A DNA stretch of 64,000 bases from the NCBI GenBank assembly GCA_032718475.1, contig JAUCBJ010008373.1, positions 1-64,000 on the forward strand, in the 5' to 3' direction. The position numbers and the translations under genes are program-made. Every line of letters begins with the position of its first letter. Position 1 is the stretch's first letter. Of this stretch, positions 1,981 through 62,536 are shown piece after piece. The notes beneath the pieces were generated by a model that had not been told where the DNA came from, ran no database searches, and worked only from the letters and a program-made list of their open reading frames with translations. The DNA is from Nemertoderma westbladi. Taxonomy: Eukaryota; Animalia; Xenacoelomorpha.

Positions 1981-2754
1981 TGAATTTGACTTTCTCAAAA
2001 TAAACATCGGTTCTCCCAAAATAAATGCATTTATTAAGATACAGTATATGACAGTTAGGTGGGATAATTGCAAAATACAGTACAAACACTTACTTTATGA
2101 GACAGGGGGAAACGGGACGCAAATTTTGCCTTGGCGAAGTTAAATTCTTAATTTATGGAAAGGAGCAGGTTACAGTGGCACGTTTTATTTAACCAAAACA
2201 ATAAACTAAACACAATGGAACAGGTTAAAGTTTTACTTTTGAGAATAAGCAACTGTTATTTGCATCGAATTTCCCCTGGAGAGGGATGAATTTTTATTGC
2301 GTCCAGTTCCCCCCCCCCCCCTATCTATTTTTATTGCGTCCACCCCCCCCCCCCCCCTATCTGTTTTTATTGCGTCCAGCCCCCCCCCCCCCCCTCCTAT
2401 CGTTTTTGCACTTTATAGTTAAATATTCCTAACAATATGCTGTAGGCCTACTGTACATGTAGGTTATTTCGTTTATATACTTTTAGTAAGGTGGGAGTGG
2501 GGGGGGGGGGGGGGGGGGGGGGTTACTGGCTGCTTTCAAATTCATTTCTCTTTCATCTAGAGCAGAATCAAGATTCCAAATATGAAAACCGTTTAGCGAA
2601 GTCTGTCGTACTTCTCGAGATATGGCTGTCTGTCCGTTTTACTGTCGGTCTGTCCTTCAGTATTTCTAGAAAACAATAGAAAACATACTGTCTGTACTTT
2701 TCTTTATAACAAATCTTCTCTTTCTATTTATGAAATTTTCACTATTTGACTTGC

Positions 2755-3877
2755 TGTAAAGGCTTTTGCGGATTTAGCTGGTTATTTTCCCCGCAAAGTA
2801 CTCTGTAGGTGTTTTAGCGGACATAAAAAGCCGTTTCCTTACTGTACACGTGTTTTAGTGGACATAAAAAGCCATTTCTTCTGTATGTGTACTTTAGCGG
2901 ACATAACTAGCAATTTTATGCCGCAATGCACCAAAATACTCTTAATACAGTGTAGTTCAGATGACGACATCTATCAGCTGAGATGTCGACGTGTAGCTTT
3001 TGGCTTTCTTTGTTCAGGCTCAATCACTCGACCAATCAGAGCGATTTTCTTTTTATTTGTACAGAAGCCTCCGGGAAATCGCGCAATGCATTATGGTTTA
3101 TGTTTACCTTTTTTCCTAAGCCCAGAACACCGGCTGTGGAATGATTCTGTGTTTCAGACTTTAGCCAAACATTAGAACGGCTTTGATCATAGAAACGTAT
3201 AACTGTTATCGCAACAAACCAATCCAAACCAAATCTGCATATCACAAACTGCTCATATTGTCACATACAAACACCGCATTATTTTTACTGCTATTTACTG
3301 TCGATTATTAATTGTATCAGTTGATGGAATATTGTTATATTTGGAGAATATCGATAAATAATCAGAAAACCCCAATCTTCTTGATATACTGAAGGTTAGA
3401 GACCGGTTACATATAGCAATTGCGACTTACATTATAGTGGTTTTGGAGTGAATTGAATGCTATTTCATAGACCCTACATTTGTCAGTGGCTGTTCTCCTT
3501 AGATATGGTTAAAATTAGTGAAGGTCGGCAGATCGGAGTGCAGCATTGTGCGGTAGTGTGCATGAGTGTGATAGATAACAAAGCATCTCCTAAAGAATGC
3601 GCTTTATACGTGAATCATTAGCCATCCCATTGTGTTTAGTGTAAGTCATAACTCTGTTTACATACTTAGAGCGCCACGTCCTAAAGGAACTGTTAATATT
3701 TCCTGAAAGTGAATAATATTTGTCAGAGATTATATATTAACAATCAATCGAATAATACAGTAGGCCTACACCGCAATAAGGTCAGAGCATCCGAATCCAG
3801 TCTCCCTTAACCGTGGGTGAATGGTCGCGCATAGGCTGGCTTCGGCTAATGTAGCTTTATGTGTATCAAATACTTGT
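2755..3877 (+). repeat. 5' LTR of BEL/Pao element, 3'-truncated (last 80 bp and PBS missing)
   Basis: Matches 22093-23215 with ~11 substitutions by eye, and homology stops at ATACTTGT. Contains three TTTAGYGGACATAA direct repeats (2811-2910). Confidence 0.9.
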
Positions 3878-5826
3878 TACTACCTAACCACCCGAACCGG
3901 TACTTACAGCAGTACAGGTACATCAGTATTATTTCATTTGTGATATATTGTATATTGTAGGCTGTTAGGGGATTAGGGATTGATCACCCCTTATTCCTTT
4001 GTATGGTTTACTTATTTCTGTCAGTTTTATTTATTTGTAGGTTAATATTGAACAGAAGGCGTGTAAGCCTGCTCAGATTGTACAGGTAATTTGTAGGCTG
4101 GACTGTTGTCTGACTGTTGTTAAGTCTGAAGAGATTGCAGTGTGTGTAGAGTGTATGTCCGATAAAGTACTAGTTAGGAACGTGGTGGGCATCCAGTGCT
4201 GTAAGGTAAATCCCCCCCGAAAGAATAAGTCGTACTACTCGGTTAGAATGCATACTAACTAACCATTTCGGAGTCTGCATATACTGTAGTTTATTTAGGC
4301 TTGATAGTAGTCTGCCAGCATTTGGTTTGTATTTTGTTTGTGTAGTCTGTACGGGTAGCGTAATATTTATTATTCAGAGTTTATGCGATTATTCGCAACA
4401 TTCACAACCCCAAGTTTATTCCTACAGTAATTGTGCTTGTTATACATACCGTTATAGTTAAATTAACCCCGGTACTACATCAGGGCTGTTTGGCGTAGGT
4501 AAAGACTGGTGATTTTATGCTCTGGTCACTCCGGCAGATACCGTGGTTCTTTTAGCTGTACAAGTATTTTTAACTGCTGGTTATTTGTTGTATAAGTACT
4601 TGTACCTAATTTAGGGTTTAGTGTACAGTGCTTTCCGAAGGTAATTAGTGTGTAGGCAGTATATTTGTGTTGTAAAGTGGTTAATAGGCACGTTAGCTAT
4701 AGTAGGCTGCGGTAATTAACTTCTAGGTAGGAACACTCCGTGTACATAACGTAGTACTTATAGCGATACGGCTATAAGTCGTCAGACGGTGGTATTTTTC
4801 CTATCTAGACAACGCAATATATTTACTACTGCTTTATTATTTTCAAATACCGTAGTATCCTGTCCGTTTGTAATAACCAGAAATTCTAACTCCTTGTTAG
4901 GCTGGTTTGTAGACTTCTTGTAAAATTAACCCTAAAAAAATTCGTACGTGTAATTTTTGTGTTTATTTAGAGATTGTAATCTCACCCCGCAATTGTACGT
5001 AATTTGTAGTAATAAGTAACTTAGGCAAGTAGAATTATTTGTTTTAGTGTCCAACAAGTAGCACTTCACTGAGAGCGTACAGCTTCTGTGTAGTGACTCC
5101 TTCCCAGAAATAATAACATTTATTTCAAATATTGTAACAAAACCCATTAAAAGGGTATATATATATTATAAATCAATTCAAACCGATTTATAAAATAGTA
5201 GGCCTGTCATACAACAATTAGGTCTTAATATCAGTTGGACTACTGCTTAAATAACGGTAATAAAGTAAAGTAAAGTAACTAAGTAACCCTAAAATTCAGA
5301 AATTCAATTATTCTAAAATAATTGACATACCGGTATTTACAATAGGCTTATTATATTTATTTCTATAAATTTGAGCTGAAATTATATACCGGTATTCTGT
5401 AATTAATTCTAGTCTATAATAATACTTATATATATACTATAGGTGTATACCGGTATTCACGATAGGCTTATTATATATTTCTATATATTTGTGCTGAAAT
5501 TATATACCGGTATTCTGTGACAAACCTAGTCTGTAATAATACTTATATATACTATAAGTGTATACTACTACTACTAGGTCGAGCGAACTCGGACATATAT
5601 CTTTCAGTTGCGGGGGTAAACCGCTTGTGGTCGCAACTCCTACAAGCGTCTTTGCAGTAGGTCGCCGGTATATAAGTGTATACCGGTACTCTAATATATT
5701 GTATATATATCACGTTACATAGAGTAACGATATCGGTAATTAATTACTAGGCTAACAGTGATACTGAATTATTAGACTTGCTTTAACTGTAATTATAGCA
5801 GTAGGCATTCAACTGTATAAACAAAC

Positions 5827-8800
5827 ATGTCTGACACAAAGCAAAACCTGTCAGTCAGTCTCCTAGATACAACCATCTGTGACCCAGATAGGAGTGCTGA
5901 ACGTTTGAGACCGAAGTTCAACTCACCTCCTACTGTAAGAAAGATCATCCCTCCAGTAGTAGTATCAGACCCTAGGCTAGTCAAACACCGTAGGTCCATC
6001 ATAGGCACTCGGGCTCAAGTCAAGCGGGACCAAGAAGCAGCTGTTAAACAGCAGCAACACGCGAGCCGAGAACTTATTTCTCAGCGGCCCGATAGCTCCA
6101 GTAGTTCAGATACTGTAGAGCTGACACCCGAGCGTGGAGCAAAGATGGCAGATGCGGTTTATTCAGATCCCCTTCTCATTCTTCCTGCAGCCGTACTCAA
6201 CAGGGTATTGATTGCGGTGGAGGAACACCAAATCGATTGGGCGAGAAGTAAGCGATCGACCAAGGATAGTTATGTGGGATACACAAGGGAGGAACTGAAG
6301 TCTATTGTCGAGTCACAATGGAACTTCCCCGGACCCGGACTCCCGTTTGACTTATCGGAAGCTGCCTGGGAAGACATACACAGGATGGGAGTGACAAAGG
6401 ATATTAGTGATCCAGCTGTATGGAAGAGGTCGGCAGCAGGATACGTACAGAGATTCTTCAGCTCTTTGGAGCGATTAGAGGAACAATTGTTTCAACAACC
6501 CCAAGGACCTCAAGAGCAGGGAGAGCTGCTTTATCAAGTTAGAGAAAGAATTCTAAGAATCAGACTAATCCTATCGGCCTTTGAGGAAGCTTCGAAAAGA
6601 AGACAAGACACGTCGTTGCAAGTTGCCGTAAAGACTTGGTTCCAGCGGGTGGGTCTCAAGGTTCAAGGAACAGCCCAGTGGAAATCTCAGCTGGCTGAGC
6701 GCTCAACCCATGGAGAATCAACAGACGCTACCTTTTCTCAAGTGGAAAGCGAAGCGACAGCAGAGAAACCGCAGAAGAGGGACGCTATTGACATCTATCT
6801 GTCAGACTATCAACGATTTCTAGGTGATGAAGAGTTGAGGAGACGGCTGGCTGGACTTCGCCCTAATAGTGAAGGAGCCAAGCTTGTGTTGGACGCAATA
6901 GATGCGGAAATGTTAGCTGCGAACCAAGCTAAATTTGATGAACACCTCCGCATCGCTAGAGTCCAAGAAGAACAAGTAAAGAAAAAACGTGGCAGAAGCA
7001 GCGACAGCGGCAGAAGTTGAAAGAAAAGCGGCAGCGGCAGCGGCAGCGGCAGAGGCAGAGGCAGAAGCGGAAAGAAAGGCGGTAGAAGTGGAAAGAAAGG
7101 CGGTAGAAGGGGAAAGAAAAGCGGCAGTGGCAGCGGCAGAAGCGGAAAGAAAGGCGGTAGAAGTGGAAAGAAAGGCGGTAGAAGGGGAAAGAAAAGCGGC
7201 AGTGGCTGCGGCAGAAGTGGAAAGAAAAGCAGCAGAGGCAGTGGCAGAAGCAGAACGGAGAGCGTTTGAAGAGACCACCCAACTAGAGTTGGAAAATCTT
7301 CAAGAGAATCAAGACTACATAAATAAACAGTTAACAGCTAGTCAGATGCAGATGATAAGTCGATCTACTCCCAAAAGGCAGGGATTTACATCATCTGATG
7401 AAGGCGATACTACCGATCCTGAAGGCGGAGGAAATAGATCTCGTCTAAACAGGCGTAGAAGAATGCCCCACCGTCAGAAATTGCCTGATTTGCCCCCAGC
7501 TGTGAGAAGGCAACTAGCTAGCACGGACTTAGGTAGTACAGAACCCACAGACCAAATTATTAGAGTAAAAAGACTCCCAACTATAATAGATGAGCCTGAA
7601 ATAATTAGGCCTGTTCTCGAAGCCACCCCCTCTGTGATAGAGACCCCTGTACTTCCAGAACCCAACTCTAAATTCCCTTTGCACAGCACTAAACTACTTG
7701 TGCCCAGCAGAACAGCCCCTGAGACAACTCCTGTCCTGGACTCCGAGCGAAATATCAATGACTTGTCGCCCGTTGTCCCTCGTCCGCCCGCTACTATGTT
7801 GGCGGCTCCCGCTTCGGCGGTCGAGTGGGTGGATGAGAGACGGCGGGGGATGGATCTCCTGCTCGGGCAGATGCAGGAGACTGTTCAACAGTTCAAGGGC
7901 ACAGTAAGGGAAAGTAGGTTAGAGTTGTAAGAAGTGCAGCAAAGTATCGCGTTAGAACGCAATAAATTGGTAAATACTCAAAGGGGTATACCACCAACCC
8001 CGGTAACAATGTGTCAACCTGTTAGGTCTGAAGTATTTCATGCGCAAGGTGTGGAGCCTACACGCATCTATACTGCTAGTGAAGTAGAAACTCCTATAGT
8101 AAACCCTATTAAGGGTAATTATAAACCTGTAGACAATGATATTCCATATAGACCTGATCATAATCCGAGAAATTTATATACCGATAACTCGATATTAAAT
8201 AACACGATGGCCCAAGAAAGTTTTACACGTAAATGGCTAGAACCGAAGCCCGTCAAGCGGTAAAGGTGGGAGAGATCGTCAAGTTCAATGGAGATGAGAT
8301 GAAATGGTTACCTTTTAATGAATATTATAAAGATATCATACAGAACTCTGTGCTATCTAACGGAGAGAAACTTAGATTCCTCATCGAGTGCTTGGAAGGA
8401 TCTCCCAAGTTAATGGCGTTAAAGTTTATTGGACATCCAGATGGATTAAGACAAGTTTGGGATACACTAAACATCAGGTATGGTAATAGGAATAACATAG
8501 CTAGGTATTTGTATGCAAAATTGGTAGCGCCCCGAAAGTTCATTAGCAGCGGGATTATAGAGTTTTCCGATGAGATCCAGGAGATCTGTAGACAATTAGA
8601 TTGGCTAGGTAAGTCTCATGAATATCAGAGTTCTATGGTTATTGGAGCCGTAGCATCTACTTTACCCAAGGGTGGAGTAGGTACACGCTGGGATAAGAAA
8701 GTGTTATATATGATGGAACAACAACGACGAGACCCTACCATGGCTGATCTCATGTCATTCTTAGTTGGAGAAGTAAAATTACAGCTCCTAAAGCAGTCCA

Positions 8801-11800
8801 GGGAGAAGACACCGGAAAATAAGGTAAGTGAGAAACCCGTTTCTAGGAGAAAGGTAACACCAGTGTGTTATACAGACGATGGCAAAAGCCAGGCCTCTCA
8901 AGAGGAAGACAGCGGGAAAGACACTGAAAGATCTTACTATGTCAACAAAACGTCTAAAGACGTAAGTAAATTTAAGTCTCGAACCCATGACAGGAGAGAA
9001 CAGGTAAGAAAAACTCCTCCTACGTCTCCTAAGAGAATTCACGGAAGAAAGCCCGAGGAAAGAACGAGTGTGCACAACGTTACCCAAAGTAAGGTAAGTA
9101 ACATCAAACCGAAATGTGCGCTGTGCGACGGGCCCCACCGTTTAAGTGTGTGTGATGAATTCCTAAAGAAATCATTAAAAGATAGACGTGAAGTCATGTG
9201 GGATAAGCGGTTGTGTTATAATTGCCTCAGACAAGGACACCAACGGCGAACCTGTTACTCCGACGCAAGGTGTGCAAAGTGCGGCGCGAAACATCATATC
9301 TTGTTGCACACTGAATTCGAACGAAACAGCCCGAGTCAGGTAAGTGAGTCCGAACTATATGTCCAATTCAGTGATGTGAACGACACTGACCAAAGTTCTG
9401 AGATGGAAGGATTCTATACGGACGAATTCTCCGACGAAAACGAATCCTGTTACCTAATAAATACCGCAGTGTATCGAGCACTTACGTATGAGAAAGAAAC
9501 CGACAGTGAGCTCCCCCTAACTACTCCTGACCGACAACCATCTTGGAAAGCACCAACTTCCAATGTAGGAATCCGAGAATTTCCCGTAGTGCAGTTGAGA
9601 GTCCACGGGCCTGACAAGAGTTATATAGTGAACGCCCTCCTTGACTCCGGCAGCACAGGAACATTCATCGACAAAGAACTAGCCGAAGACATCTTTGCTG
9701 GACAACCCAAGTTCCGAACTAAGTTAAACATGTCAGGAATTATGCAGGTTTGGAAATCTACAGTAATTGCAGATTATTATGTAGGTGCGTTGTCCACCCC
9801 CCAGGATGAACTAGGAGAACACAGCATAAGGTCAGTAAAAATGGTGGCGATAAAGAACTTCGCTACCAGCCAAGTAGAACCTTATAACTGGGATGAGGAC
9901 GATTTCACCCAGCAGCATAAGATACCTAGATTCAATACAGACTATCCTGGAGTGCAAATACTCATCGGCCAAAATGTGCATGAGGCGCTTGAGACATTGG
10001 AGAAACGGCCTGCTCAACCGCAACCACTACAAACCTATGCGGGAAAAACTAGAGTAGGTTGGTACTTTACTGGCCCTTCCCGTAGAACTCTCATGGAAAG
10101 GTTACCCAAAGAGCGGGTCTACCAGGTAAGTGAATGGGAAGAGGAGAACAGTGAGGTAGATAATGATGACATCTACCAACTCTTCGACGAGGAGAAGACC
10201 ATCGACCTCCTTACGGAAAACGAAACTTGGCAAAACCAAGTGAACCTATGTCACCTCATTCATCCAGCTGAACAAGTGTACAACGACGAACTGAATGAAG
10301 TGATAGATCGCTACAACGCAAAGACTCGCGTTGAACACGCCGTACGATTCTTTACTCAAGAGGCTGTAGAGCCCAATTCCTACGATAAGGCCCTATCGGT
10401 AGAAGAAGAAAGAGCCAAGCAGATCCAGGAGACAACTATACGTTTTCTTAAAGATCAAGGTAGATATGAAATTGGTCTGCCATTTCGAAAGCGAGAACCT
10501 AAATTTATAAACAACCGACCATTGGCGGAGAAAAGAATTGCGCAACTACATCGACGCCTTACGGCAAATGCTTCAGCTAAGGAAATGTACAAGACTCAGT
10601 TGAAGAAAATTATTGACAAGGGATATGCGGAGCGAGTACCGGAATAAACACCCATAACTGAGAGAACGTACTATCTAACACATCATTACGTTCCCAAACC
10701 CGGTAAACCCAACGAAGTCCGGGTAGTATTTGACGGCTCCGCCCTCTACATGGGCCAATCCCTCAATTCCGAGTTGTTGCCAGGACCCAACTTACTCCAA
10801 TCCTTGTTGGGAATACTCCTAAGATTAAGACAATATTCAATCGCTTTCGCCTCTGATATAGAAGGCATGTTCTTACAAGTTAAGGTGCTGGATAAGGATC
10901 GAGACAGCCTACGATTTCTGTGGTGGCCTGAGGGAGACCTCAACCAGAAACCGGTGGAGTACTGGATGACCATCCAGGCTTTTGGGATCATCTCGAGCCC
11001 TTCAAACGCCTGCTCAGTAGTGCTTACCACTGCTGATGACAACCGGGACGCCTTCTCCAAAGAGGTTGTTGACAACATCAAACGGGATATATACATGGAC
11101 GACAATTTAAAGTCCCTCCCATCGGTGGAAGAAGCCATTGATGTCGCCAAAGGAACGGTAGAGTGCTTGAAAAGAGGTGGATTTCGATTAACTAAATTCA
11201 CCAGCAACTCCCGTGAGTTTCTGGAATCGATCCCGGTAGAAGACCGAGGAGTTAAAGATCTAGACCTAATCAAGGACGATCTTCCAGAAACCAAGACGCT
11301 TGGTTTGAAATGGGACACGGAGAGAGATATCCTGTTTTTCCAGCTAAAACAGCGAGATAATCCAGTTCGGACTAAACAGATTTGTCTAAGTATCCTGAGC
11401 ACTTATTTCGATCCATTGGGATTTATTAGCCCAGTTATATTGATTGCTCGGAGTTTAGTACAACAAATGTGGCTTGAAAACCACTCATGGGACGATCCAC
11501 TTAAGGGAGAACTATTAAAGAAGTGGATGAAATGGGAAGATTCTCTACCATCCATCGAGAACTTTATAATTTCCCGTTCATATTTTGGTCACATTCTCCC
11601 TACGTATTCCTATCAACTCCATGTGTTTGGAGACGCCAGCGATATGGGAATAGGTATAGTAGCCTACCTGAGAGTTGAAACTCCGGATGGAATTAAGGTC
11701 GCCTTGGTTACCTCTAAGGCCTTGATAAACAACAAGTTGAAAGTTCCTCGAGCGGAGTTAAAGGCGGCTCTATACCCTACAGCCATCGGCCGGAATGTAA

Positions 11801-13977
11801 CAGAACAGATCGACTATCCACTGGAAAAAACTGTCTATTGGACCGATGCTTTACTCGTGTTAGAGTATATAACCAATGAAGTCTGTCAGTTCATCGTCTC
11901 CGTTACCAACAGAGTAGCCATTATACTTAGTCGCACGAAGATAGACCAATGGAGACATTGCCCCAGGACGATTAATCCAGCCAACATCGCCTCCAGGGGA
12001 GCAACTCCACAAGAACTGATAGATACTCCAGACTGGTTAGGTGGACCCGACTTCCTAAGCAAAGAAGAGGATGAATGGCCTCCTCATCTTACTACGGCTG
12101 AGATTAGACAAGCCAAGGGAGCGGAGAAAGTCAAACCTTAAACCTGGGCGAGTAAATCGAAGTTATTTAAACCCGCGATAGATCTGTCTGTACTACAAGT
12201 TTCCGGAGACGATGCTTTGGATCCACAATTCCCCTCCACAAATAAGTCTGTTGTGGAAATGAGAGAGATAGATTGGAAATCTGGAACGAAAGACGTCTCG
12301 CAGGGACTCTCACCACTTCTGCAGAGAGCGATACATCACTATAGTTCCTGGAATCGGCTCTGTAAGGCCGTTACATATTTAAAGCGATGTTTTCATCATC
12401 ACTACTCCAGGACGAAGACCACTAGTGATACCGCTCCACTGACATCTGCGCAGGTCCATGTTGTTAAAGATCTTCCCAAATACAAGATATCCGACAGGTT
12501 TCTGAAGGAGAAGAGCAGTTACCAGGAGCATGAAGAAACCAATAAGCAGATACTGAGACTCCTGCAATGCTATGAGGATTCCGATAAGTATTTCCTGTTG
12601 TTGAGAAATCCACAGATGCGCTTAAGGGATCGTTTCTCTAGCACAATGATAGATGGGTTAATACGTGTTGGAGGAAGACTAACTAATGCTCCATTATCCT
12701 TTGACACTAAGTTTCCCATACTCATTAGAAATCTTGAAATACAAATCAAGATGATTGTAGATGTTCACAGTAAGCTTTATCATGCTGGTAGAGAACGAGT
12801 TCTTAGCGAAATTCGAACTCGCTATTATTTTTATAAACCCCGTAGAGCTCTGAACCAAGTTCTTAGGAACTGCATACCCTGTAGGAAAGCATTCAGTAGG
12901 CCTTTAACACAGCGAGAGGCAGAATTACCTAGGGAACGAGTAAGCTTCTATGAACCACCCTTTACTAATACCGGTGTGGATTTATTTGGCCCTATTGAAG
13001 TATATCGTGCTAGGAATATAGTCAAGAGATGGTGTGTCATCTTTGTCTGTATGACTTGTAGAGCTATCCATCTCGATATGGTGAACGATTTGTCTACCAA
13101 TAGCTTCATATTGAGCTTACGCCGACAGATCGCTCGCTTTGGAACTAGTAACACGATGAGATCTGATAAGGGAACAAACTTCATTGGTGCCAACAATGAA
13201 ATCAGGGCTTACGTCAAAGATTGGAACCAAAGACAGGTGGACGATCAGCTAAGGGTAACAGCGTCTAGCTGGACCTTCAACGCCGCCGACGCCCCTTGGT
13301 GGGGAGGAAGTTGGGAGAGATTAATCAGAAGTGTGAAGACAGCATTTCACTTTATAGTGCCGTGCCGCGCGTATCTCACCGACGAACTTTTGCGGACATT
13401 AATGGAGGAAATCGCCGCCTATCTCAACGAGAGACCGCTTATGCCAGTCTCATCGAGTCCCGATTCCCTGGAAGCGCTAACACCCGCGCACTTCCTACTG
13501 AAGAAACCTGTAGCCATGCTCCCACGATCGGAAATCACGGACGGAGACGAATACTGCCGGCAAACTTGGCAACTTATGCAGTTGTTATCCCGTCGTTTCG
13601 CTGACCATTTCGAAAAACATTATCTGCCCACGCTACAACTTCGAACTAAGGGGTTTGCGCAGCAAGAAAACGTCAGCGCTGGAGACATGGTCCTTATTGT
13701 GGATTCAGATCTTCCACGTAAGCGGTGGCAGACAGGTCGCATCATCGAGACTCATATCTCGGATGACGGTTTAGTGCGATCGGTAGAACTCGGCGTCATG
13801 CGACGTAACTTTAAGAAACCGGGAATTGTCTTCGAGACGCAGCAGCTCAATCGCCCAGTTGGTCGTTTATGTTTACTGGAAAGAGACAGAGAACTCTCCG
13901 GAAACTATGGAAGGCAAGATACTCTTCCCACGACCACCTCCCTAATCCAGCAAACATCTAGGGACTCCCCAACGTAA
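5827..13977 (+). pseudogene. BEL/Pao gag-pol polyprotein, disrupted (frame changes ~6980 and ~8240; in-frame stops at 7928, 10645, 12139)
   Basis: DUF1759-like gag (VKFNGDEMKW), triple Cys/His knuckle (CALC..H..C, CYNC..GH..C, CAKC..HHILLH) and protease ALLDSGS. RT motifs YLTHHYV..VRVVFDGS (read through the stop), DIEGMFLQV and YMDD. Pao RNase H LHVFGDAS. Integrase HxGR/CIPC, GVDLFGP, SDKGTNF, PWWGGSWERLI. Confidence 0.93.
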
Positions 13978-14134
13978 CATCGTCTGGAGTGGGTGTGTGA
14001 CTATATTATTTTATATCTGATTTTATTATTTTTATATTTAGGTATGTATTATTATGTCATTTTATTATAATCGTTTTCTTTAATTTTATTTAGTAGAATG
14101 TTATTTTAGCGATTATTTAGTAGATTAGTGCCAT

Positions 14135-16203
14135 ATAACTCCAACTGGGGGCCATAGGGCCACTCCTTAATAATTAAGATATAAACTAGTACATTAACTA
14201 TCGAATAATAATAGAACAAGAGAAGCATGTTATTAATAATATCTATTAATTGTTAGAAAAATCCGATGCAAAAAATTACACGGCTCCAATATAATGACCA
14301 TTATATATATCTTGTTGGATATTTGTTTGCAATACATTTCTATAGGAAAAGTACATAACACAAAACGACCACAGGGCCACCTAATTTTTCTGGTAATTTT
14401 TGTGTAATTTACACATCAAAAACACATTCTAGAACTCAGATCTTTTCCGAAAATGCTTTGTTAGACTTTTCTACACCGTTTTTATTCATTTCAAAACTTA
14501 TGTATATTTTAATATATTATTTTATATATCTTTGATTCCACGACTAACTTGTAGGTATTTGAACCAAGATGGTGGCTTATCTAAGACAAAGTTGAAAAAT
14601 TAGTAAGTGTGAATTAAAAACTTTGTAATTAAATTTTGGTATCGAAATTTTTATTGGAGCTATTTGATATCATTAATGCAGATGATCCTCTTTGTGCTTG
14701 CAGTCAAATACCGTATTATTAAGTTTTTATTACATAAAACCATGACATAAAAAATAGTGGCCCTATGGTTTTGACGGATCTTTATTATAACAGATATATA
14801 GATTTCACCTTTAGAGTTCACCTTTCACCTATTGATTTTTTATACACCAGAGGGACTAGAACAAATGAATCAATTATAATTGAATTGTATAATCGGCGTG
14901 CTGTATTTTTTTTAATTAAAATTCTACATTTATGCTACTTTCTAATAGTTTTTTTTATTTCGCTCACTGAATAGAATGTGTACGGAATAGAACGCTCACT
15001 GAGTATAACGCTCACTGAATAGAACGTTGACTGAGTATCATGCTCACTGAATAGAACACTCACTGAATATAATGCTCACGGAATAGAACGATCACTGAAT
15101 AGAACGTTAATTGCGTGGAACGCTCACTCAATAGAACGTTGACTGAGTATCATGCTCACTGAATAGAACACTCACTGAATAGAACCCTCACTGAATATAA
15201 CGCTCACTGAATAGAACACTCACTGAATAGAACGCTCACTGATTATAATGCTCACTAAATAGAATGCTCACTGAATAGAACGCTCACTGAATATAACATT
15301 CACTGAATATAACGCTCACTGAATAGAACACTCACTATATAGAACACTCACTGAATATAATGCCCACTGAATAGAACGCTTACTGAATAGAACGCTCACT
15401 GAATATAACACTCACAGAATTGAACATTCATTGAATAGAATGCTCACTGAATATAACATTCACTGAATATAACGCTCACTGAATATAACACTCACTATAT
15501 AGAATGCTCACTGAATATAACGCTCACTGAATAGAACGCTCACTGAATATAACACTCACAGAATTAAATATTCATTGAATAGAATGCTCACTGAATAAAA
15601 CACACACTAAATAGAACACTCACAGAAATGAACACCCACTGAATAGTACACCACTAAATAGACACTCTCTGAATAGAACGATAATTGAATAGAACACTCA
15701 CTGAATAGAATACTCACTGAATAGAACGTTCACTGAATAGAACGTTCACTTAATTGAACACTCACTGAATAGCAAGTTCACTGAATAGAACGCTTACTGA
15801 ATAGAACACTCCCTGAATAGAACGTTCACAGAATATAACACTCACTGAATAGAACGCTCAATGAATAGAACGATCGCTGAATAGAACGCTCACTTAATAG
15901 AAGGCTTACTGAATTTTTGAAGATAATCAGCTTTAAATAGAAATAAAACTACTGTATTATGAAAGAACCTAACAGCGCAGGGGTTAATAACCACCACTCA
16001 TAGGACCTAAAGATGCAACACCTAATGTCCAAAGGACCTTATAACGCCTTACAACTACTTCATACCATAGGGCCACTGTGGCCCCATGGCATGATTAAAC
16101 CATAGGGCCACCTTTCCGACCATAGGGCCACTGTTGGATATTGAATAGAACCATAAGGCCACCTACTGACATCCATAAGTGGCCCTAAGGTTGTGTGTTG
16201 GAT
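14135..16203. mobile_element. Probable non-autonomous DNA transposon nested in the BEL element
   Basis: Imperfect TIRs (TCCAAC...TAGGGCCACT / AGTGGCCCTA...GTTGGA), TA-rich flanks, repeated CATAGGGCCAC subterminal motifs, no coding capacity. Confidence 0.55.
14962..15912. repeat. 16-bp minisatellite (CTCACTGAATAGAACG)n, ~55-60 copies
   Basis: Directly visible degenerate tandem array. Confidence 0.95.
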
Positions 16204-17429
16204 ATATATATATATTCGCGTTTATTACTTAATTACTTATATATTATATATTTAGTGCAACGGCGAGAAATAATTCTTTTTCTCTTTCCTTACTGTCCGT
16301 ATTACATTATAAATACGTGACTACAGTAAGATGAAATGTCCGTACTTATTAAAGTACAATAAAGCTCCTACTATATTCAAGTATTATTGGTAAGTAGAGT
16401 ATTAGGAATGCAAAATTCAGATCCTCGTGTCTCGGCTAAACCAAGCTCTGGGTAGACCTTGGAAACGACTTGCCTCTTCTCGTTGACATTGCTTCTTGCG
16501 ATATTGCTCTCATACCGTATATTAAATAATACATATAGTAGCGTGATGTCCCTTTAACAGTAGCGTACAACGCAAAATAAATCTGTTAAACCCTTTGACC
16601 ATCTGTAATTCTAGTCGATTAAGATATCGCGGCACCCACCGATATACTTGAAAGACAAAATTCTAGAATCAGTGGTTAACGTCCCCAGACATGTTCTGGA
16701 ATAAATCGGTGCCCATCTTAAATATTAACTATTAATATTTATAAAATCTGTCAAACAGATACGATAGAGTAACTACTTACAAGTTAACTCTAGAAAATCT
16801 ATAAATTAAAATCTGTAAAATTTTAGATCCTTTAAAATTCTAGTCTATTAAGATATCGTAGCACTTACCAATACTCTTAAAAAGACAAATTTCCTAGAAT
16901 TCAGGATCCCAGTCCCCAGACATGTTCTGGAATAAAATTGTGTCTATTTTAATATTAAATAATAAAATTTACGGGAATAAATTTAAATTCATCTCTTTTA
17001 ATGAATTTGATAAATTGTCATTTTATGCAATTTACAACATTCCCAAAATTCCATTAATTAATAGATCATGGGAGCGGAGATTCACCCTATTAAGTGTATT
17101 AGTGTGCGAGAATCTCCAATATATAGTCAATAGCCGATAAAATTCATAAAATCATGTATAAAGGGGATATTGACAATTAAAGAATTACTATTAAATAGCA
17201 TCCCAGATCTGTATGCATGGGAATTACCCTAATTCTACCGCTAGCTTTCCATAATGTCACCATAGCAACAACCACGCTAGAATTAGAAGCGAGTTAAAAG
17301 AACAATAGAAAGCTTGCCCCATTGAATAGCATAGGGAATAAATAGCACACTGCTAGTATCCAAGGATACATAATAATAACGTCGCATTCTGGAAGGCACT
17401 TGACTAACGGACAAATGGCCCGAATGTGT

Positions 17430-17717
17430 ACAATTTGTGACAGTTGTGTGGAATTTGTGCGTTTATAGGTGAATGTTACTACTAAAGTGTGTTTACAGTA
17501 GCGAGTCGCAATTGTGAAAGTAGCCCTAACTCTGCAGTAACAACCTGAAGTAAAATCTAAGCCTTTGGGACGGACAGTGGAGTGACTTGTGCCGGTTATC
17601 GTTGTCGTTGTGTAGCTACTACGTTGGCGAAAAACACAGCGACGACGGTACATCGGCGCTGAGGATCTTGCACTGTCCGGGGGCCGAGAGGGGTAGGCAG
17701 CGACGCCCGCTAGCCTA
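17430..17717 (+). promoter_or_regulatory. Structured RNA leader (IRES-like candidate) upstream of accessory ORF
   Basis: Nested stems 17571-79/17671-79 (9 bp), 17589-96/17652-59 and 17597-613/17634-650 (17 bp with 3 G-U pairs), plus hairpin 17694-17717. Function is inferred only. Confidence 0.55.
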
Positions 17718-17759
17718 ATTATAAACTCATTATAATATTGATAAACTCATATAGCAGCT

Positions 17760-20700
17760 ATGACTGAGTTGATAGAAGATGATCTTGGTATTAGGGAGCG
17801 ATATACTCTACCTTTACAAGCGTTTGTTGATAGCTTGATACGCGGCGACGCTAGTCCAACTACTACGGAGGACGATGGTCGTTATATCGAACCGCCAATG
17901 TCCCAGGAGCAACTCACTCGTGAATTGGACTATAGAAAATTCACAGCTCGCTATACACATCGTAATGGTACGTATATGGACTTCTTAACTACCGGCCATC
18001 CTATCGATTTACACGATACGGACGATGTAGACACCGAAAGGGAAATGGTTTTATTTAAATATCATACCCAGCGGAGTCGGAACGATAAACCGAGAATAGA
18101 ACATGAGAATTCTATTCGGAACCGACTCGAAAGAGAAGACGTTGAAGAGCCGGATAAACGCAGCGACTTCAACGATTATCTGGAATTCGTGAGAGAAACA
18201 TATCTCAATATTGCCAGTCAACAATATTTAGAAACTCGATATCCTCAAGGTATACATCATGACCCTATGATAGAACTCAAACGGCTCTATTTCACTATGA
18301 TGTATCTTACCGCCGATCGACCGCTACCTGTCGTCCCAGATAGCTTCGAACAGATGGAGGAATATTGTAAAACTGGAGAACGATCACCCGCGTTTCCCCT
18401 GCAGGACGTGCGTCTTTGGTATTACTGCGACGAATGCCCTAGACCCAATCAGCAAACGGAAAGACATAAACTTCCGCGGAGATGTTGCGCTAAACACAGT
18501 TTTACACGATATACTTATGGGAGTTTCGAGCGAAACCTGTTCGATGTATCACCTACGCTTGCTCGACTCAAACGATCCTTAAATAAACCAATGATCAGAG
18601 TTCCGGAATACTCGGTCAGACCTCCTCATTCCTTAGTGAGACCTCAAACGCTTGATCCTAATAGTATAACGGATCCCCCTGAACTGTACTCACTATTTAA
18701 AGATCTTGTGTTACCCGAACAGTTAATCGGTGGCACTCCGGTAGTAGGCTCGCTAGATATTCGCCCTTCCTACCTAGCCGGATTGGGACGCGGGCATCTA
18801 ATATCGCCGTTCAACCCGTACAATCGTCCCGGTTTAACCCCGATACAACCCGTTACCGAAGTCGAGGAGAGCGTTGTACGAAACGCGTTAGACGCTATTC
18901 AGCAGAAGATCGGAAAAGGAACTTACGATTGTTTAGAGAAACGCAAATTGCAGCAACAAGTCCAAGCGGTGAAAGAATTAGCTTTACCCCAGTTAGATCG
19001 AGAAATCCAGAACCTCGAGGAAGACATCGAACGTGGACGAACCTATTCTCTGCAAGAGTTCTTAGACGAGCGTTTACAACAACAAGCGGAGGAAAATCAG
19101 CTCAAGGAGAAACACATAGAAATGGATGAGAGAGAAGAAGCAGCTTTAGCCCAGCCAGAAGCTCAAATCCTTATGACTGATTTATATTCTAAAACCATCA
19201 TCCATCCTTCGATGGTTCCCCATTTCGGAGACAAACTCTTCGCCACGGCACAACCTCAACCGGTTGATATCAACCTAAGATCTCGAGATCTTATCGCTGA
19301 CGCTCCTATGTTGCAACGTCTGCCAATCGAGGCCGCTCGTGTCGACGGTATACTCGTTGAACCTCCGGACAATAGAGCGGATCTTGTCCGTCGTATGGTA
19401 CACGAGGTCAACATATGCGCTAGACCTTTACCGAACTCATTTTATGGAATCAAAGATCCCCCTTATTATGTCAATCTAACTCAATATTATATGGTAAAAC
19501 CGGAAGATCCTACACATAGTCTAAGGTTTCTACCACTAATAAATCCTCTCGATCTTGTCGAACTCGAACAACTGCAGAAACATCTGGATCAGTTAGTGAA
19601 AGTAAACTCATTCCGAAAACCCTACAATGTTTCCAGAATAGAGAAAGATACAATACCTCCGTATAATCTCGATGGATTTATCAAAACTCGATTAGTCCAC
19701 TGGAATCTCGACGTGTTATTCGAGGAGGAAAGAATACAACGATATGGAGATGTAGAAACATATACTTCACAGTATTTGAAGTATAGAGATCTACCTAATG
19801 CTAGCGAATGCGCCACCTTGTGGCATCCAGTGGGAATGACTCTAGAAAATGCCACTAAAGAGTGGAACGAGACTCTTAATGTTATCGAGATGTATGGAGT
19901 TGTCACTTACGATAACGAAGGCAGCGTTCCGGTTGGAGAACTGGGGACTACGCGCATGATACATATACGAGGACCAGCTGGTTCCACCCACGTATTTACT
20001 CGAGCGTGTTCCGATGTGATTGATTATTCTTTTGAGACTCTAACCTTAGATACAAAAGAAACTCCGACATGGACAATTCGAACTCGCGCAGCGTTACGTC
20101 ACTGACACCGAGCGCAAACCGGCCATGGGTATCGATGGATCGATGTTACCTCAGCCCGTGCTCGAGATGTTGTTTAACGAAAGCATCCTTAAAATCGGCT
20201 CAGCTGTTTATGGAGTTCTCCAAAACGACTTTAGGAACATGGAGAATATCCCATATCCTTTCGTAGATACTCAGCTGATTGCTCCCTGGGCAGAAGGCCG
20301 AGGTTTCTTCCGAACTATGTATGCCAATACACCCAGCGGCATCACTAAAGTACAACGAACCTCCATCGGACATCTTGCCTTTCGAGAATATGGATGGAAT
20401 TTCAAGGTTGGAAATCCTATCAACTACCAACAAGTATATAGAGATCATTATTCTCGATTATACTTTGACGGACACTTGACCGCACCTGGTGCAGTGTATA
20501 GCTTTATGAGTGTTCCACTTCGTCCCTCCTTAGCTATATACACGATCTTTGAAAACGCCGCACTTGCCGGTTGGCTAGCCGATGTGTGCAGTCGTACTAT
20601 ACGCGCCCATCCCTTAATACTTGGAACCAAACTCACCAAGCTAGATGAACACAATAAATTAATCCGCTTTGAATGTTTCAGGCGCTTTCTGACTCCGTTC

Positions 20701-22014
20701 CGTAACGTTGATAGTCAGTTCAAGGACCGCGCTCTGACTAAGCTCAGCCTAAGAGACTCAGCTGCTGAGAAGTTAGACAGCGCTGGATTCGCCATTGTCA
20801 AGGACGTTTGTATACAGAACTTACATTCCTCTGTTATACAAAGACCCCGAATACCCACGGGTTATTCTATCGTGGAAGTTCAGACAATGGGTTCACTTGA
20901 GGAGACAGCCGCACCTACATCAGCTATGCAATTGGAAGACGAACCAATATGCTTAGAATCTGAGGAGATTCAGCCTACAGCGCCCCGGAGCAGCGACAAC
21001 GACTACGTCTTGGAATGGTATCAAGGTCCACAATGTCTCACCGCATACGATTATCGGCACGCCAACTATGTTTCTCGAAAACGTTGCCGATTATGCGCAT
21101 CGAGAGATCATTTCACCCCCATGGACTCAGACGTACCCTGCTCCTATTTCCATGAACAACCGATGATGGAGATCTATTGTGCATATTGCAGATTCAATAA
21201 CTTGCACATTTTCGCAGTCTGCCCCCAATTTATGACTCAATGCCATCATCGTCAACTTAAATGACATGCCAGTTTTGATTGCCCTTTTAACCGCGATCTA
21301 GAGAGCGTAGATGAGATGATTACCCTGCGCTACATCAGAGCTTGGGAAGCGAATGCGGATTTACATTGTGAGTCACACCATCGCTATTACCCTGGACGCG
21401 CCTACGAAGGAGTTTACGCGTTCCATCCTTATCTATTCGCGTCTGTTGAACAAAAATCACGCACACCGAGTTACGAACTAATGAAGCGTGTTGGTGAGTG
21501 TATTTCCACCAAATTTGTTCGTAAATATCTCAGGAACATCAATCCTAACGATATTAATTCATACAACTTGATCACTTTCATCCGTCAAGACCCGGAGTAT
21601 GGCGATTTGTTTATCAACTCGCATCCAGAGTTACAGGAAGTACATCGACGGCCCTACGAATATCGAGCCCGAGAATGCGAGTTAGAAAGAACCATTAAAC
21701 CGAGGAAGTTTCTCACCACTCACGGTCCACCTACCGCTATTGTTCAGACGACTCGTCAGGGACCAGTAGGAGCTGCTGTCCTAAAACGCGCTCTAAAAGC
21801 CGTTAGACCTCGCTCCACTGAGGTTGATATCGATCAACCAGGTACCTCTACCAGTGGATACACCGACCGTAATCCCAAACCTTCCGATGCAATTGTATTG
21901 CACCCTTCATCCAGGAGTTATAGCCCTCCTAGTAAAGTGGCTCGCCCCAAAGAGAAAAGGACTCTTGCTAGCCTCAAAAAACTGCGTAAACGCCGTCCTC
22001 GCAAGAAAGACTAA
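17760..22014 (+). pseudogene. Accessory ORF (~1400 aa when repaired): coiled coil + DEDDy-like 3'-5' exonuclease fold + CCHC zinc knuckles + basic tail
   Basis: ORFs 17760-20105, 20125-21264 and 21316-22014 join through one +1 shift (~20050-20100) and one in-frame TGA (21262) that sits inside a knuckle (QCHHRQLK*HASFDCP). Exonuclease-like motifs VVTYDNEG, LPQPVLEMLFNESILKIG, FVDTQLIA, SIGHLA..YG..FK, LT....YSFMS. No signal peptide or TM segment seen. Confidence 0.75.
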
Positions 22015-22081
22015 CTGTTTAGAGTATTCTTATATTTTAGAAACTGTGATTTTTTATATTTTATAGAATTAAATCCCATTT

Positions 22082-22092
22082 TCTGGGAGCGG
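22082..22092 (+). promoter_or_regulatory. Polypurine-tract-like primer site of BEL element
   Basis: TCTGGGAGCGG directly abuts the TG of the 3' LTR. Confidence 0.7.
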
Positions 22093-23295
22093 TGTAAAGG
22101 CTTTTGCGGATTTAGCTGGTTATTTTCCCCGCAAAGTACTCTGTAGGTGTTTTAGCGGACATAAAAAGCCGTTTCCTTACTGTACAGGTGTTTTAGTGGA
22201 CATAAAAAGCCATTTCTTCTGTATGTGTACTTTAGCGGACATAACTAGCAATTTTATGCTGCAATGCACCAAAATACTCTTAATACAGTGTAGTTCAGAT
22301 GACGACATCTATCAGCTGAGATGTCGACGTGTAGCTTTTGGCTTTCTTTGTTCAGGCTCAATCACTCGACCAATCAGAGCGATTTTCTTTTTATTTGTAC
22401 AGAAGCCTCCGGGAAATCGTGCAATGCATTATGGTTTATGTTTACCTTTTTTCCTAAGCCCAGAACACCGGCTGTGGAATGATTCTGTGTTTCAGACTTT
22501 AGCCAAACATTAGAACGGCTTTGATCATAGAAACGTATAACTGTTATCGCAACAAACCAATCCAAACCAAATCTGCATATCACAAACTGCTCATATTGTC
22601 ACATACAAACACTGCATTATTTTTACTGCTATTTACTGTCGGTTATTAATTGTATCAGTTGATGGAATATTGTTATATTTGGAGAATATCGATAAATAAT
22701 CAGAAAACCCCAATCTTCTTGATATACTGAAGGTTAGAGACCGGTTACATATAGCAATTGCGACTTACATTAAAGTGGTTTTGGAGTGAATTGAATGCTA
22801 TTTCATAGACCCTACATGTGTCAGTGGCTGTTCTCCTTATATATGATTAAAATTAGTGAAGGTCGGCAGATCGGTGTGCAGCATTGTGCAGTAGTGTGCA
22901 TGAGTGTGATAGATAACAAAGCATCTCCTAAAGAATGCGCTTTATACGTGAATCATTAGCCATCCCATTGTGTTTAGTGTAAGTCATAACTCTGTTTACA
23001 TACTTAGAGCGCCACGTCCTAAAGGAACTGTTAATATTTCCTGAAAGTGAATAATATTTGTCAGAGATTATATATTAACAATCAATCGAATAATACAGTA
23101 GGCCTACACCGCAATAAGGTCAGAGCATCCGAATCCAGTCTCCCTTAACCGTGGGTGAATGGTCGCGCATAGGCTGGCTTCGGCTAATGTAGCTTTATGT
23201 GTATCAAATACTTGTGATAGGCTAAAGTCGATTTATAACCTAGAAGACACCTAAATTTGGCAGGTTAAACTGCTAAAGGTCTAAAAGCGCGAACA
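22093..23295 (+). repeat. 3' LTR of BEL/Pao element (1203 bp, complete)
   Basis: TGTAAAGG...GCGAACA followed by TSD CTTGC. Confidence 0.95.
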
Positions 23296-24939
23296 CTTGC
23301 CGATCAGTTTATTGCTTTACCTAGTTAAGAGGCATACGCCTTAATTAAACTCCCATATTATCATAGCAACTGGAGTTTTCTAGAACTGTTGAGTTTTACA
23401 TTAAGATCCGGTTTGTGGTTCCAGGTGACACATATCGACTTCAAGAAAGGTTCATTGAGTAGTTCATGTCCAAAATTAAATATTTATTCGTTAAAACGTG
23501 TTTAATAAACTTCGGCATCCAGTTTCCTCTTAACATCCTCCGAACTCTATATTTTACGCTAATTTAACCTTACCAGCTTATCAACTACGGTATAATACAG
23601 TACTATGGGGTAGCTCCAACACTTACTGTATATTTAAACCACTGCGCACTGTAGTTAACAAACTAATTCGTTGTATTACAATTTCACACTACCGGGCATC
23701 CTCATTACCCCATATCCCGTTCACAAAAAAACAACTTAAAATTCTTCTTTTTTCCATATAAAAAGTGGCGCCTGTAAGTGTGATAGAGCCAAGCAGTTAA
23801 TTAAGTTCATTACGATAAAAAACAGCATTTTCTGCAGCCTTTTAATGGATATTAATTACAGTATTTTCTAGTATAAGATTTAAATAATAATACTTAAAAA
23901 TAATACAGCTGTAATCCCCATGGCCCATACCGGCATAACCCATACCCGTTGTCAAGCTGTCAAGTGATTTCCTTTAAGAAATTAGTTTTTTATTGATGAT
24001 AAACGTAAATTACCTTATTAAAATTCCCCGTCTCTCCACACCCTATACTTCCAGCTGCCCCATTCCATGGCGTGCTTGCTATTACACGTTGTGGGGTCTT
24101 CGAGCAGCACGTGTTCAAATGTTCAATGACTGAACAGCGACTAATTAATAAAATTAATGAGAGATTCATTGACCAGCTACCGACAGACCAATATTGTGAC
24201 ATATATTTTAGTTTAATGTTTGATTCAATTAGAGGCACAAACTAAAAAGGCTACAAATATATAGGGTTGAATAATTAAATTAGTCACCCATTAAAAGGTA
24301 GCCAAATATAAGTTGCAATCTATATAAATTTTTTAAATTCAGTAGTGTGCGTGTGTTGTGTATTGATTCCGTAGATTTCATGTTGAAATAGCGTTCATTA
24401 ATTTAATTTCTATTTAATTATTCAGGCATAATAATACACACATTAAATTAGTTCGTGTGTGTTAAGTGTGTAAGATTTGATTGTTTCGTCACGAAACCAT
24501 TAGGTCACAGTAACTGACGAATTCTTCGCGAATTTCGCAAACGTCGCAAACTTCGGGAATTTGTTCTACAATTTTGACTCCTTAAGCAAAAGGGTCCCGA
24601 ATGAGTTTTTTAACCTTTATTTTTTTGTGATTTTGAGTGCTTTTTTATATTAGTGAATGTTCTAGAACCTTAGTATTTTTTACTAGCTAGTAATTTTTGG
24701 AAATTATTTTGGTTATTAATATATTCTTCAACAGTTTAACCTGAAATATCATGGACTTTCACATTTTTTATAATTTCAAAAAATACTAGCTAGCAAAAAA
24801 ACACTAGCTATCATAAAAAACATATCTACTAATGTTGTAGAACTTTCACCAATACCAAAAAATTTTAAAAACTCTAAAAAAGGATTGGTGAAAAATGGCT
24901 GGGGTGTCGACAGGGCGAAGTAGGGACCGTGTTGCTTAA

Positions 24940-30674: not shown

Positions 30675-30895
30675 TGTTAGAGTAACCAATATGTAATTTA
30701 ATCAGATTAATTATATTGATTAATTATAATATACAACTGATTAGTCAGCTGTGCAGTAGGAGATAATTGTATGTTACACAGCTGTGCAGTTAGAGGTAGT
30801 AGGACAATATGCATAACGATGAAGAAGAATTAATTAATATATGAACTATAGTAAACTACAGTAATTGTTTTCTGATCCTGTGAGTAATCCTCACA
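30675..30895 (+). repeat. Gypsy 5' LTR
   Basis: Identical to 35552-35772. Confidence 0.95.
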
Positions 30896-30897
30896 TT

Positions 30898-30910
30898 TGG
30901 TGACCCAGCG
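30898..30910 (+). promoter_or_regulatory. Primer binding site, tRNA-Trp-like (TGGTGACCC)
   Basis: Starts 2 nt after the LTR. Matches the reverse complement of the tRNA-Trp 3' end for the first 9 nt. Confidence 0.7.
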
Positions 30911-30952
30911 ATTTCTTTCTTTTTTTTTAAATAAATTAGTTGCTATTGTCCA

Positions 30953-35405: not shown

Positions 35406-35537
35406 TAATCAGTTATTTTTGAGTCTATTTCACTTTCAATCTCATTAGGTTCAGTCTAACTTTAATGAGCCTTTAATGATACTCTTGTTTATCTCATATT
35501 TAGTGTAAATATTTATTTAATAATGTGCTCCGCAATT

Positions 35538-35548
35538 AGGAAGGGGGG
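35538..35548 (+). promoter_or_regulatory. Gypsy polypurine tract
   Basis: AGGAAGGGGGG, 3 nt before the 3' LTR. Confidence 0.85.
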
Positions 35549-35551
35549 TCA

Positions 35552-35772
35552 TGTTAGAGTAACCAATATGTAATTTAATCAGATTAATTATATTGATTAA
35601 TTATAATATACAACTGATTAGTCAGCTGTGCAGTAGGAGATAATTGTATGTTACACAGCTGTGCAGTTAGAGGTAGTAGGACAATATGCATAACGATGAA
35701 GAAGAATTAATTAATATATGAACTATAGTAAACTACAGTAATTGTTTTCTGATCCTGTGAGTAATCCTCACA
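35552..35772 (+). repeat. Gypsy 3' LTR
   Basis: Identical to the 5' LTR and followed by TSD ATAGG. Confidence 0.95.
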
Positions 35773-54599: not shown

Positions 54600-54875
54600 T
54601 ACTCATAGCGTCCCCAGATCTCACGGTCAGCCACACACAGTGTCGATGGACCCAGCAACATAGCGCCCCAGATCTCGCGGTCAGCCATACAAACTGCCGA
54701 CGGACCCATACACAGTGACGGCGGACCCAGCAACATAGTTCCCCAGATCTCATGGTCAGTCATACACAGTGCCGGCGGACCCAGCAACATAGTGCCCCAG
54801 ATCTCACAGTCAGCCATAGGCCCTACATAGTGCGAGCGGACCCAGCAACCTAGCGCCCCCAGATCTCACGGTCTC
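54600..54875. repeat. Second block of the ~55-bp minisatellite
   Basis: Same unit as 51630-53545. Confidence 0.85.
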
Positions 54876-58978: not shown

Positions 58979-59102
58979 CTGCAGAGGAAACAATCGAGTT
59001 TAGGAATCGCATTTAGCCTCCATTAGATGCCTCCTAGGAGGCTGAGGTCACCCAAATGGTTGTATTAATTAATTTAACCCAAAATAGTACAGAGTAATTT
59101 TT

Positions 59103-62370: not shown

Positions 62371-62536
62371 TTTCTTTTTATACAAAAAAAAAAATTGTGT
62401 GTAAAATCAACATGATCATTAAAATCTAGGATCGATTGCTTTCTATTGCGGAATATAGGTAGACTGTAACTTATATTCGTAAGGATTAATAGAGATCAAT
62501 AAATTAAATAAAACATAGAGAAATCATAAACCTTAC

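Follow-up and report, generated by a model that had tools for sequence, protein, structure and literature searches.

How does a BEL/Pao retrotransposon come to fill 20.5 kb, and what is encoded by the long reading frame that it carries between its integrase and its 3' long terminal repeat (LTR)? The question is raised by positions 2755-23295 of a 64,000-nt stretch of the Nemertoderma westbladi genome (NCBI GenBank assembly GCA_032718475.1, contig JAUCBJ010008373.1, positions 1 to 64,000, forward strand). This whole stretch is the DNA analysed here and is called the window. LTRs, a target-site duplication and the encoded domains identify the element as BEL/Pao. An original prediction, made from the letters alone, had proposed an undescribed complex lineage with a structured RNA leader and an exonuclease/zinc-knuckle protein in place of an envelope (env) gene. 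The solid result of our analysis is an abundant, multi-copy family with a large, selected, non-env orphan gene, which we call open reading frame 3 (ORF3), and a structured leader ahead of it. The features of the window copy are collected in Table 1.

ORF3 is a family gene under purifying selection

ORF3 comprises about 1,417 codons and ends 78 nt ahead of the 3' LTR. Its size of about 4.2 kb, its sense orientation and its place had been recognized correctly in the original prediction, but it is not open in the window copy, where the frame breaks near 20045 and a stop codon lies at 21262. Contigs from four runs of four studies were placed on positions 15950-23500 at 80% likeness. This copy evidence covers the 3' part of the element only, not gag-pol; read depth was not taken as copy number, and one run, X5, was only guessed to be RNA. 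The runs contributed 54,022, 16,210, 612 and 281 contigs with 80-100% identity, spreading from below 90% to above 99%, and all bins of ORF3 were covered. At the stop codon nearly all of the depth differs from the window copy, i.e. the stop is private to it, and single-base length differences at the frame break are listed in all four runs.

The variants examined were 40 of 1,928 rows. Of these, 36 lie in ORF3, and 35 were classified after the stop site had been omitted. A variant was regarded as private to the window copy if at least 97% of the X1 depth differs from that copy. The 20 variants that segregate among copies are almost all synonymous (18 synonymous, 2 non-synonymous), whereas the 15 private ones show the pattern that neutral decay gives (5 synonymous, 10 non-synonymous; Fisher p 0.0009 for the contrast). 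The synonymous share depends on the frame, with 18/20 in the frame of ORF3 versus 2/20 and 1/20 in the other two at an expected share of 0.34. The same bias is found in all three pieces of ORF3 (10/11, 5/6 and 3/3), which argues for one protein-coding gene kept by the transposing family. ORF3 is a family gene under purifying selection. That it is maintained in other copies, a point that the original prediction had left to be checked, is borne out by the private stop and by this variant pattern. The contrary possibility named there, a host gene captured once, was rejected in view of thousands of diverged contigs covering ORF3, the selection on it and the lack of a host homolog.

Contigs that skip the middle of ORF3 and keep the leader and the 3' end (joints 18128-20934 in runs X4 and X5, 19122-21856 in X3) suggest that deleted derivatives of the family exist. 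About 209 nt early in ORF3 (17787-17997) are skipped by contigs of the DNA runs X1 and X3 and of X5, an abundant length variant.

A young but broken BEL/Pao insertion

The LTR pair (2755-3877 and 22093-23215) is identical at 1112 of 1123 nt, and so few mismatches (11) indicate a young insertion. The 5-mer CTTGC flanks the element on both outer sides as a 5-bp target-site duplication. The LTRs and the perfect duplication around 20.5 kb had thus been read correctly, but the 5' LTR is 80 nt short: its 3' counterpart has a further 80 nt and ends in CA at 23295, right next to the target duplication, and these 80 nt, absent from the 5' LTR, do not occur a second time elsewhere within the element. 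A related LTR 3' end at positions 2-379 of the window, 79% identical, stops at the same terminus as the element's 3' LTR and confirms this terminus as the true end. This related LTR end runs straight into tandem repeats of a 19-nt unit (380-728). Within 120 nt of the 5' LTR break, no TGG start of a primer-binding site was found (tRNA-Arg or tRNA-Gly would be expected; the LTR end is missing in this copy), so that the primer-binding site seems to have been lost together with the LTR end.

The coding region has the hallmarks of BEL/Pao elements, for which PMC554778 (in excerpt) served as comparison. Pfam matches in Gag-Pol are to DUF1759 (E 9e-12), Peptidase_A17 (E 4e-35) and DUF5641 (E 5e-18). 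A triple Cys-His box in Gag (9115-9309, with its parts at 9115-9153, 9214-9255 and 9271-9309) fits the BEL/Pao pattern CX2CX3-4HX4C, CX2CX2-4HX4-5C, CX2-4CX3HX4H (PMC554778, in excerpt). The order of pol is protease (PR), reverse transcriptase (RT), RNase H (RH) and integrase (IN), with BEL/Pao motifs and BEL-specific Pfam domains: LLDSG at 9637 and LIG at 9961 in the protease, YMDD at 11092 in the RT, DAS at 11632 in the RNase H and an integrase at 12750-13870 as the last domain. An LTR of 1,203 nt in the class of 0.2-1.2 kb, TG...CA termini and the target-site duplication agree with this assignment. Among the best 120 matches listed for the integrase part, the relatives are ordinary BEL/Pao polyproteins with 32-43% identity, and the best pol relatives come from fish, echinoderms and corals, among others. 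The element belongs to BEL/Pao by descent and is new by architecture. For none of these 120 relatives is an exonuclease or glycoprotein Pfam domain listed, nor does the long N-terminal extension of Gag have a homolog among them; the capsid region, preceded by about 800 codons here, begins at residue 318 (median) in those relatives that could be aligned, 54 of the 120. The gag-pol frame is broken five times, by frame changes near 7000 and 8240 and by stops at 7928, 10645 and 12139. With these breaks, two more in ORF3 and the cut 5' LTR, the window copy is now dead.

The distance from the pol stop to the 3' LTR is 8,115 nt. The claim of about 8 kb of extra sequence after the integrase therefore holds as to length, but some 2.1 kb of it (14133-16209) is probably a nested non-autonomous DNA element, judged by its sequence and its coverage. 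It ends in imperfect 32-nt inverted repeats (23/32 nt matching), carries subterminal 12-nt repeats that are confined to this segment within the window, and includes a tandem array (14961-15914) in which a 16-nt unit is repeated about 60 times. In all four runs the depth of the bin 15950-16201 (337, 211, 18 and 0) is far below that of the next bin (1.1 million, 0.56 million, 1,543 and 104). Read as nested, the segment leaves a family unit of about 18.5 kb. According to the profile issued by ICTV, the international virus taxonomy committee, BEL/Pao genomes measure 4.2-10 kb and have env as the only third gene (PMC8742986), so the original prediction was right that typical elements are much shorter. 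The range, which describes the group and is not a criterion of descent, is exceeded here even without the nested part. Length alone is not a record, as machine-called BEL/Pao elements with a median of 7,382 bp have maxima of 16-22.8 kb, up to 22,762 bp (PMC3118150, supplement 9, in excerpt).

The cut in the 5' LTR at 3877, the absence of a primer site next to it and the nested element between pol and leader also bear on another origin. The abundant unit could be LTR-leader-ORF3-LTR, with a BEL gag-pol (3878 to about 14130) joined to it at the broken LTR end; the restriction of the copy evidence to 15950-23500 would fit this as well. We consider such a chimera very improbable. The gag-pol part has no LTRs of its own, a single target duplication brackets everything, and a simple deletion accounts for the 5' end. 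Besides, a site in pol (12117) and one in the leader (17070) share 11 nt that include the octamer of the 3' polypurine tract (PPT).

The leader folds better than its shuffles

The 1.55 kb between the nested element and ORF3 has folding potential and folds better than shuffled sequence. Six of 19 windows of 150 nt had z < -2.5; in the 5' untranslated region the same held for 3 of 24, and in 14000-14950 for none of 11. The z score was -6.8 for 16500-17150 (20 shuffles) and -5.1 for 17520-17780, and only -2.3 for 16205-16420. Covered by contigs in all four runs, the region contains an internal 160-nt duplication (16579-16741 and 16809-16971); shortly before the ORF3 start codon, at about 17566-17680, it has a long hairpin. 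The structured RNA leader of the original prediction is thereby retained, without its strongest part: 15990-16200 was rejected as a component of the leader, as it lies in the probable nested element. A reading of the 17566-17680 hairpin as a hammerhead was dropped, since by eye it lacks a stem III and it has no Rfam match. The Rfam search gave no family match for the leader and just a chance microRNA match, in gag.

Features of the ORF3 protein

The highest mean hydropathy of ORF3 over 19 residues is 1.19 (Kyte-Doolittle; hydropathy only, no signal-peptide program was run). Without a hydrophobic segment, and with no Pfam or PDB match to a glycoprotein, an env identity was rejected, and the earlier description of ORF3 as non-env and free of transmembrane segments is upheld. 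Three Cys/His clusters of the zinc-knuckle type and a basic tail are likewise confirmed; the clusters have no Pfam match. The N-terminal 700 residues or so are not explained by any feature found.

In the region given in Table 1, motifs of the DnaQ type follow one another in order when inspected by eye: VVTYDNE, MIHIRG, LFNESILKI, LQND, VDTQLIA, SIGHL and YTIFE. They supply D-x-E, D and Y-x3-E where the DEDDy order asks for ExoI D-x-E, ExoII D and ExoIII Y-x3-D, and ExoII is shifted by 4 residues. A DEDDy profile was built from 29 bacterial PF01612 domains. When aligned with the native piece 20050-20700 by HHalign, it matched the ExoII/DT region over 45 columns with 29% identity (score 25.3, pairwise E 0.003, probability 11%), a score that none of 60 shuffles reached. 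The best HHalign match of any piece of ORF3 falls on this same region. We regard a DEDDy fold as probable on the basis of the motifs and this match, and catalytic activity of the predicted domain as less probable than the fold. The term exonuclease is used here for a suggestive, motif-level resemblance and not for a significant match.

Searches for relatives were negative throughout. The 786-aa piece of ORF3 has no homolog among 1.84 billion representatives, and the exonuclease piece has none in a search of 5.8 billion clusters (longer proteins, and those of 198-630 aa). PDB sequences gave chance matches to EccB1 only, and no relative was found among viral and metagenome contigs. Two large native pieces are blank in the ESM Atlas, where a blank is not evidence of novelty.

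A tentative role in handling the element's own RNA

Our preferred reading, to which we give slightly less than an even chance, is that the window holds a recently inserted, broken copy of a BEL/Pao family of about 18.5 kb, the ORF3 protein of which serves as a nuclear RNA-binding accessory factor for the family's own RNA. Twenty ATGs lie upstream of ORF3 between 16000 and 17760, so ORF3 would need a message of its own, presumably spliced or internally promoted. Given the knuckles, the basic tail and the predicted nuclease-like domain of a soluble protein, binding of RNA in the nucleus appears most plausible. The element's own structured leader would be the natural target, as it is retained in the deleted derivatives in the way a cis signal would be. 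Binding could then help the long genomic transcript to be processed, protected and exported. Rev/Rex-type export factors offer a functional analogy to this proposal; from Rev-type factors, and likewise from CERV, a protein of the Caenorhabditis elegans element Cer1, we infer by analogy a nuclear role on self RNA.

Several points weigh against this reading. The last acidic DEDDy motif has E instead of D. In an hmmsearch with the bacterial profile the exonuclease piece came 20th among 250 frames, at only E 13. One unrelated native control out of 18 exceeds the HHalign score of 25.3, and the ExoI piece does no better than shuffles (27/60); the exonuclease of the original prediction is accordingly kept as ordered DEDDy-like motifs but not as a significant profile match. 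No piece of ORF3 has a Pfam, NCBIfam, PDB or database match, and single-sequence AlphaFold models of two native pieces were uninformative (predicted local distance difference test, pLDDT, 31 and 32). The selection test draws on the 40 best-supported variant rows, the structure of the leader on folding versus shuffles; the localisation and RNA binding of ORF3 are predicted from sequence, and its expression is presumed.

The negative library searches and the native control that outscores the HHalign match would suit an ORF3 that is real and selected and whose exonuclease motifs are fortuitous, for example a structural or scaffolding protein with an orphan fold. We consider this unlikely, since within 220 codons five to six motifs have the order and spacing of DnaQ, and HHalign, unguided, picks a single region, the expected one.

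The same DEDDy-like and knuckle evidence, together with the great abundance of the family, could also point to an anti-silencing factor. ORF3 would then act on small RNAs by trimming, degradation or sequestration, or would imitate DEDD proteins of the Piwi-interacting RNA (piRNA) pathway such as EXD1, MUT-7 and Maelstrom, and so protect the family in trans. A parallel with mut-7, EXD1 and Maelstrom has been raised for DEDDy ORF3s of rotifer elements, but the same study saw no clear link of these ORF3s with copy number or escape from piRNAs (PMC5408684). A suppressor acting in trans also leaves the presence of a 1.55-kb structured leader in deleted derivatives unexplained, and we find this function rather unlikely.

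An active 3'-5' exonuclease could instead act during reverse transcription, by proofreading or by trimming cDNA ends, and let an RNA of 18 kb be copied. Nidoviruses use an exonuclease in this way. The length of the family, about twice the ICTV range, and acidic residues at all four motif positions would agree with such a function, and the PPT octamer hints at other adaptations to length. It recurs at 12117, 17070 and 22085, i.e. at distances of 4,953 and 5,015 nt, and the two internal copies, at 12117 and 17070, are possible plus-strand primers, as far as sequence can tell. Two extra copies arose in 54 of 3000 codon- and composition-preserving shuffles, a test made post hoc. Given this, and given one further copy of the octamer in the neighbouring, unrelated gypsy element, the recurrence is a lead only. 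The tail of ORF3 is basic and of nuclear type, the last motif has changed from D to E, and giant size is not reported for the rotifer elements that carry DEDDy ORF3s. A role in reverse transcription is in our view quite improbable. Improbable, too, is the most elaborate version of the lineage, an 18-kb genome kit that would combine an active 3'-5' exonuclease and zinc knuckles in a protein of 1,400 residues with a response element of structured RNA and with plus-strand primers spaced 5 kb apart inside the genome. Purine-rich repeats at 7027-7255 sit another 5 kb or so upstream of the octamer at 12117, and among the loose ends of run X5 the octamer is still visible in the row at 17088.

Feature map and the rest of the window

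Table 1. Features of the BEL/Pao element in window coordinates
Feature	Position	Strand	Remarks
Left target-site duplication	2750..2754		CTTGC
5' LTR	2755..3877	+	final 80 nt missing; no evident primer-binding site beyond
5' untranslated region	3878..5826	+	1.95 kb; short tandem duplication at 5327-5565
Gag N-terminal extension	5827..8232	+	long, about 800 codons ahead of the capsid region; Ala/Glu/Arg/Lys repeat at 6980-7255
BEL/Pao Gag-Pol	8233..13977	+	capsid (DUF1759) to integrase
Internal copy of the 3' PPT octamer	12117..12124	+	in the RH-IN linker; candidate plus-strand primer; post hoc, weak
Probable nested non-autonomous inverted-repeat element	14133..16209		about 2.1 kb
Structured leader / cis region	16210..17759	+	upstream of ORF3; non-coding, 1.55 kb
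Second internal copy of the 3' PPT octamer	17070..17077	+	post hoc, weak
ORF3	17760..22014	+	about 1,417 codons; ATG at 17760, stop at 22014
Candidate DEDDy-exonuclease-like region of ORF3	19899..20553	+	motif order by eye and weak HHalign match
Three zinc-knuckle-type Cys/His clusters	21085..21282	+	CX2CX4HX9C, CX2CX5HX4C; third incomplete here, crossed by the stop
Basic C-terminal tail of ORF3	21943..22011	+	14 of the last 30 residues are K/R; may serve in nuclear localisation or RNA binding
Polypurine tract	22085..22092	+	7/8 purines
3' LTR	22093..23295	+	complete, 1,203 nt, TG...CA
Right target-site duplication	23296..23300		CTTGC

The neighbouring gypsy-type LTR element is compact (30675-35777), with LTRs of about 226 nt that are 99% identical, the order PR-RT-RH-IN and one frame change near 33270. 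An intronless host ORF of 991 aa at 37460-40435 fuses an Aminotran_5 domain (cysteine desulfurase-like) to a PP-loop and is suggestive of a tRNA-thiolation enzyme; a further intronless ORF, at 43468-44265, is dienelactone hydrolase-like. The RNA polymerase I subunit RPA2 is encoded in long exons at 56487-63140; the sequence between the exons includes an RT fragment (61345-62181) and a tandem array with a 39-nt unit. The host looks intron-poor. The window further contains a long inverted repeat that resembles a foldback element (48599-49497) and a large array of a 55-nt satellite (51630-54873).

Relation to known elements

With Belpaoviridae (Semotivirus) the element shares the triple Cys-His Gag, LLDSG and LIG, YMDD, DAS, the integrase in last position, an LTR of 1.2 kb and a PPT (PMC8742986; PMC554778, in excerpt); the family differs in its size of about 18.5 kb, in a third gene that is not env-like and in a Gag extension of about 800 residues. 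Extra coding sequence after the integrase is also found in the nematode BEL elements Tas, Cer7, Cer13 and Atlas, but there the extra gene is a viral glycoprotein (PMC9094657 and PMC554778, in excerpt). Gypsy elements of giant size, accessory domains and nematode BEL elements with env are on record (PMC6431247, PMC6338049, PMC2774666 and PMC9094657, in excerpt). Burro of planarians and Ogre of plants, LTR elements too, measure 16-30 kb and have additional domains or ORFs; both are of the gypsy type, the extras of Burro are fused in the polyprotein and the size of Ogre is largely LTR (PMC6431247, in excerpt).

The closest precedent are the ORF3s of the LTR elements Juno and Vesta of bdelloid rotifers, which are DEDDy exonucleases without transmembrane domains and of untested function (PMC5408684). 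They, too, follow pol, lack env features, have DEDDy-type motifs with one D/E exchange and in some cases Cys-His-Cys. Juno and Vesta are gypsy-like rather than BEL/Pao, with LTRs of 159-551 bp and ORF3s of strong HHpred homology. Compared with these by description, ORF3 of the window has about 1,400 codons, an unexplained N-terminal part of 700 residues, knuckles, a basic tail and weak homology. CERV is an LTR-element protein with a candidate nuclear localisation signal and a Cys-rich region that acts on the genomic RNA of its element and is needed for export of this RNA; with 517 aa, spliced from gag exons and without an exonuclease domain, it is alike as a functional analogy only (PMC10309623, in excerpt). 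Of the features of Rev- and CERV-type systems, a basic tail and a structured leader alone are seen here.

No BEL/Pao element whose ORF3 is an exonuclease was found described in the literature searched, which did not include Repbase, GyDB or subscription journals. Cer7-type elements are said to have an additional accessory or exonuclease-like region; the literature search found no paper on this, and if true it would lower the novelty of the family. The claim of an undescribed complex lineage was overstated, given that DEDDy ORF3s in place of env are known from rotifers (PMC5408684), that machine-called BEL/Pao elements reach 21-22 kb (PMC3118150, in excerpt) and that some of the length and of the strongest RNA structure falls within a probable nested insertion.

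Implications

BEL/Pao elements are catalogued with gag and pol and, in some cases, with env. A thriving family that approaches double the catalogued size and preserves an orphan gene of 1,400 codons by purifying selection indicates that accessory genes have evolved among them too. If the DEDDy assignment is true, the same class of enzyme has been captured in the same slot as in the unrelated rotifer elements. The role of such exonucleases, whether in RNA processing, escape from silencing or fidelity, would then become testable, with the deleted derivatives as natural controls.

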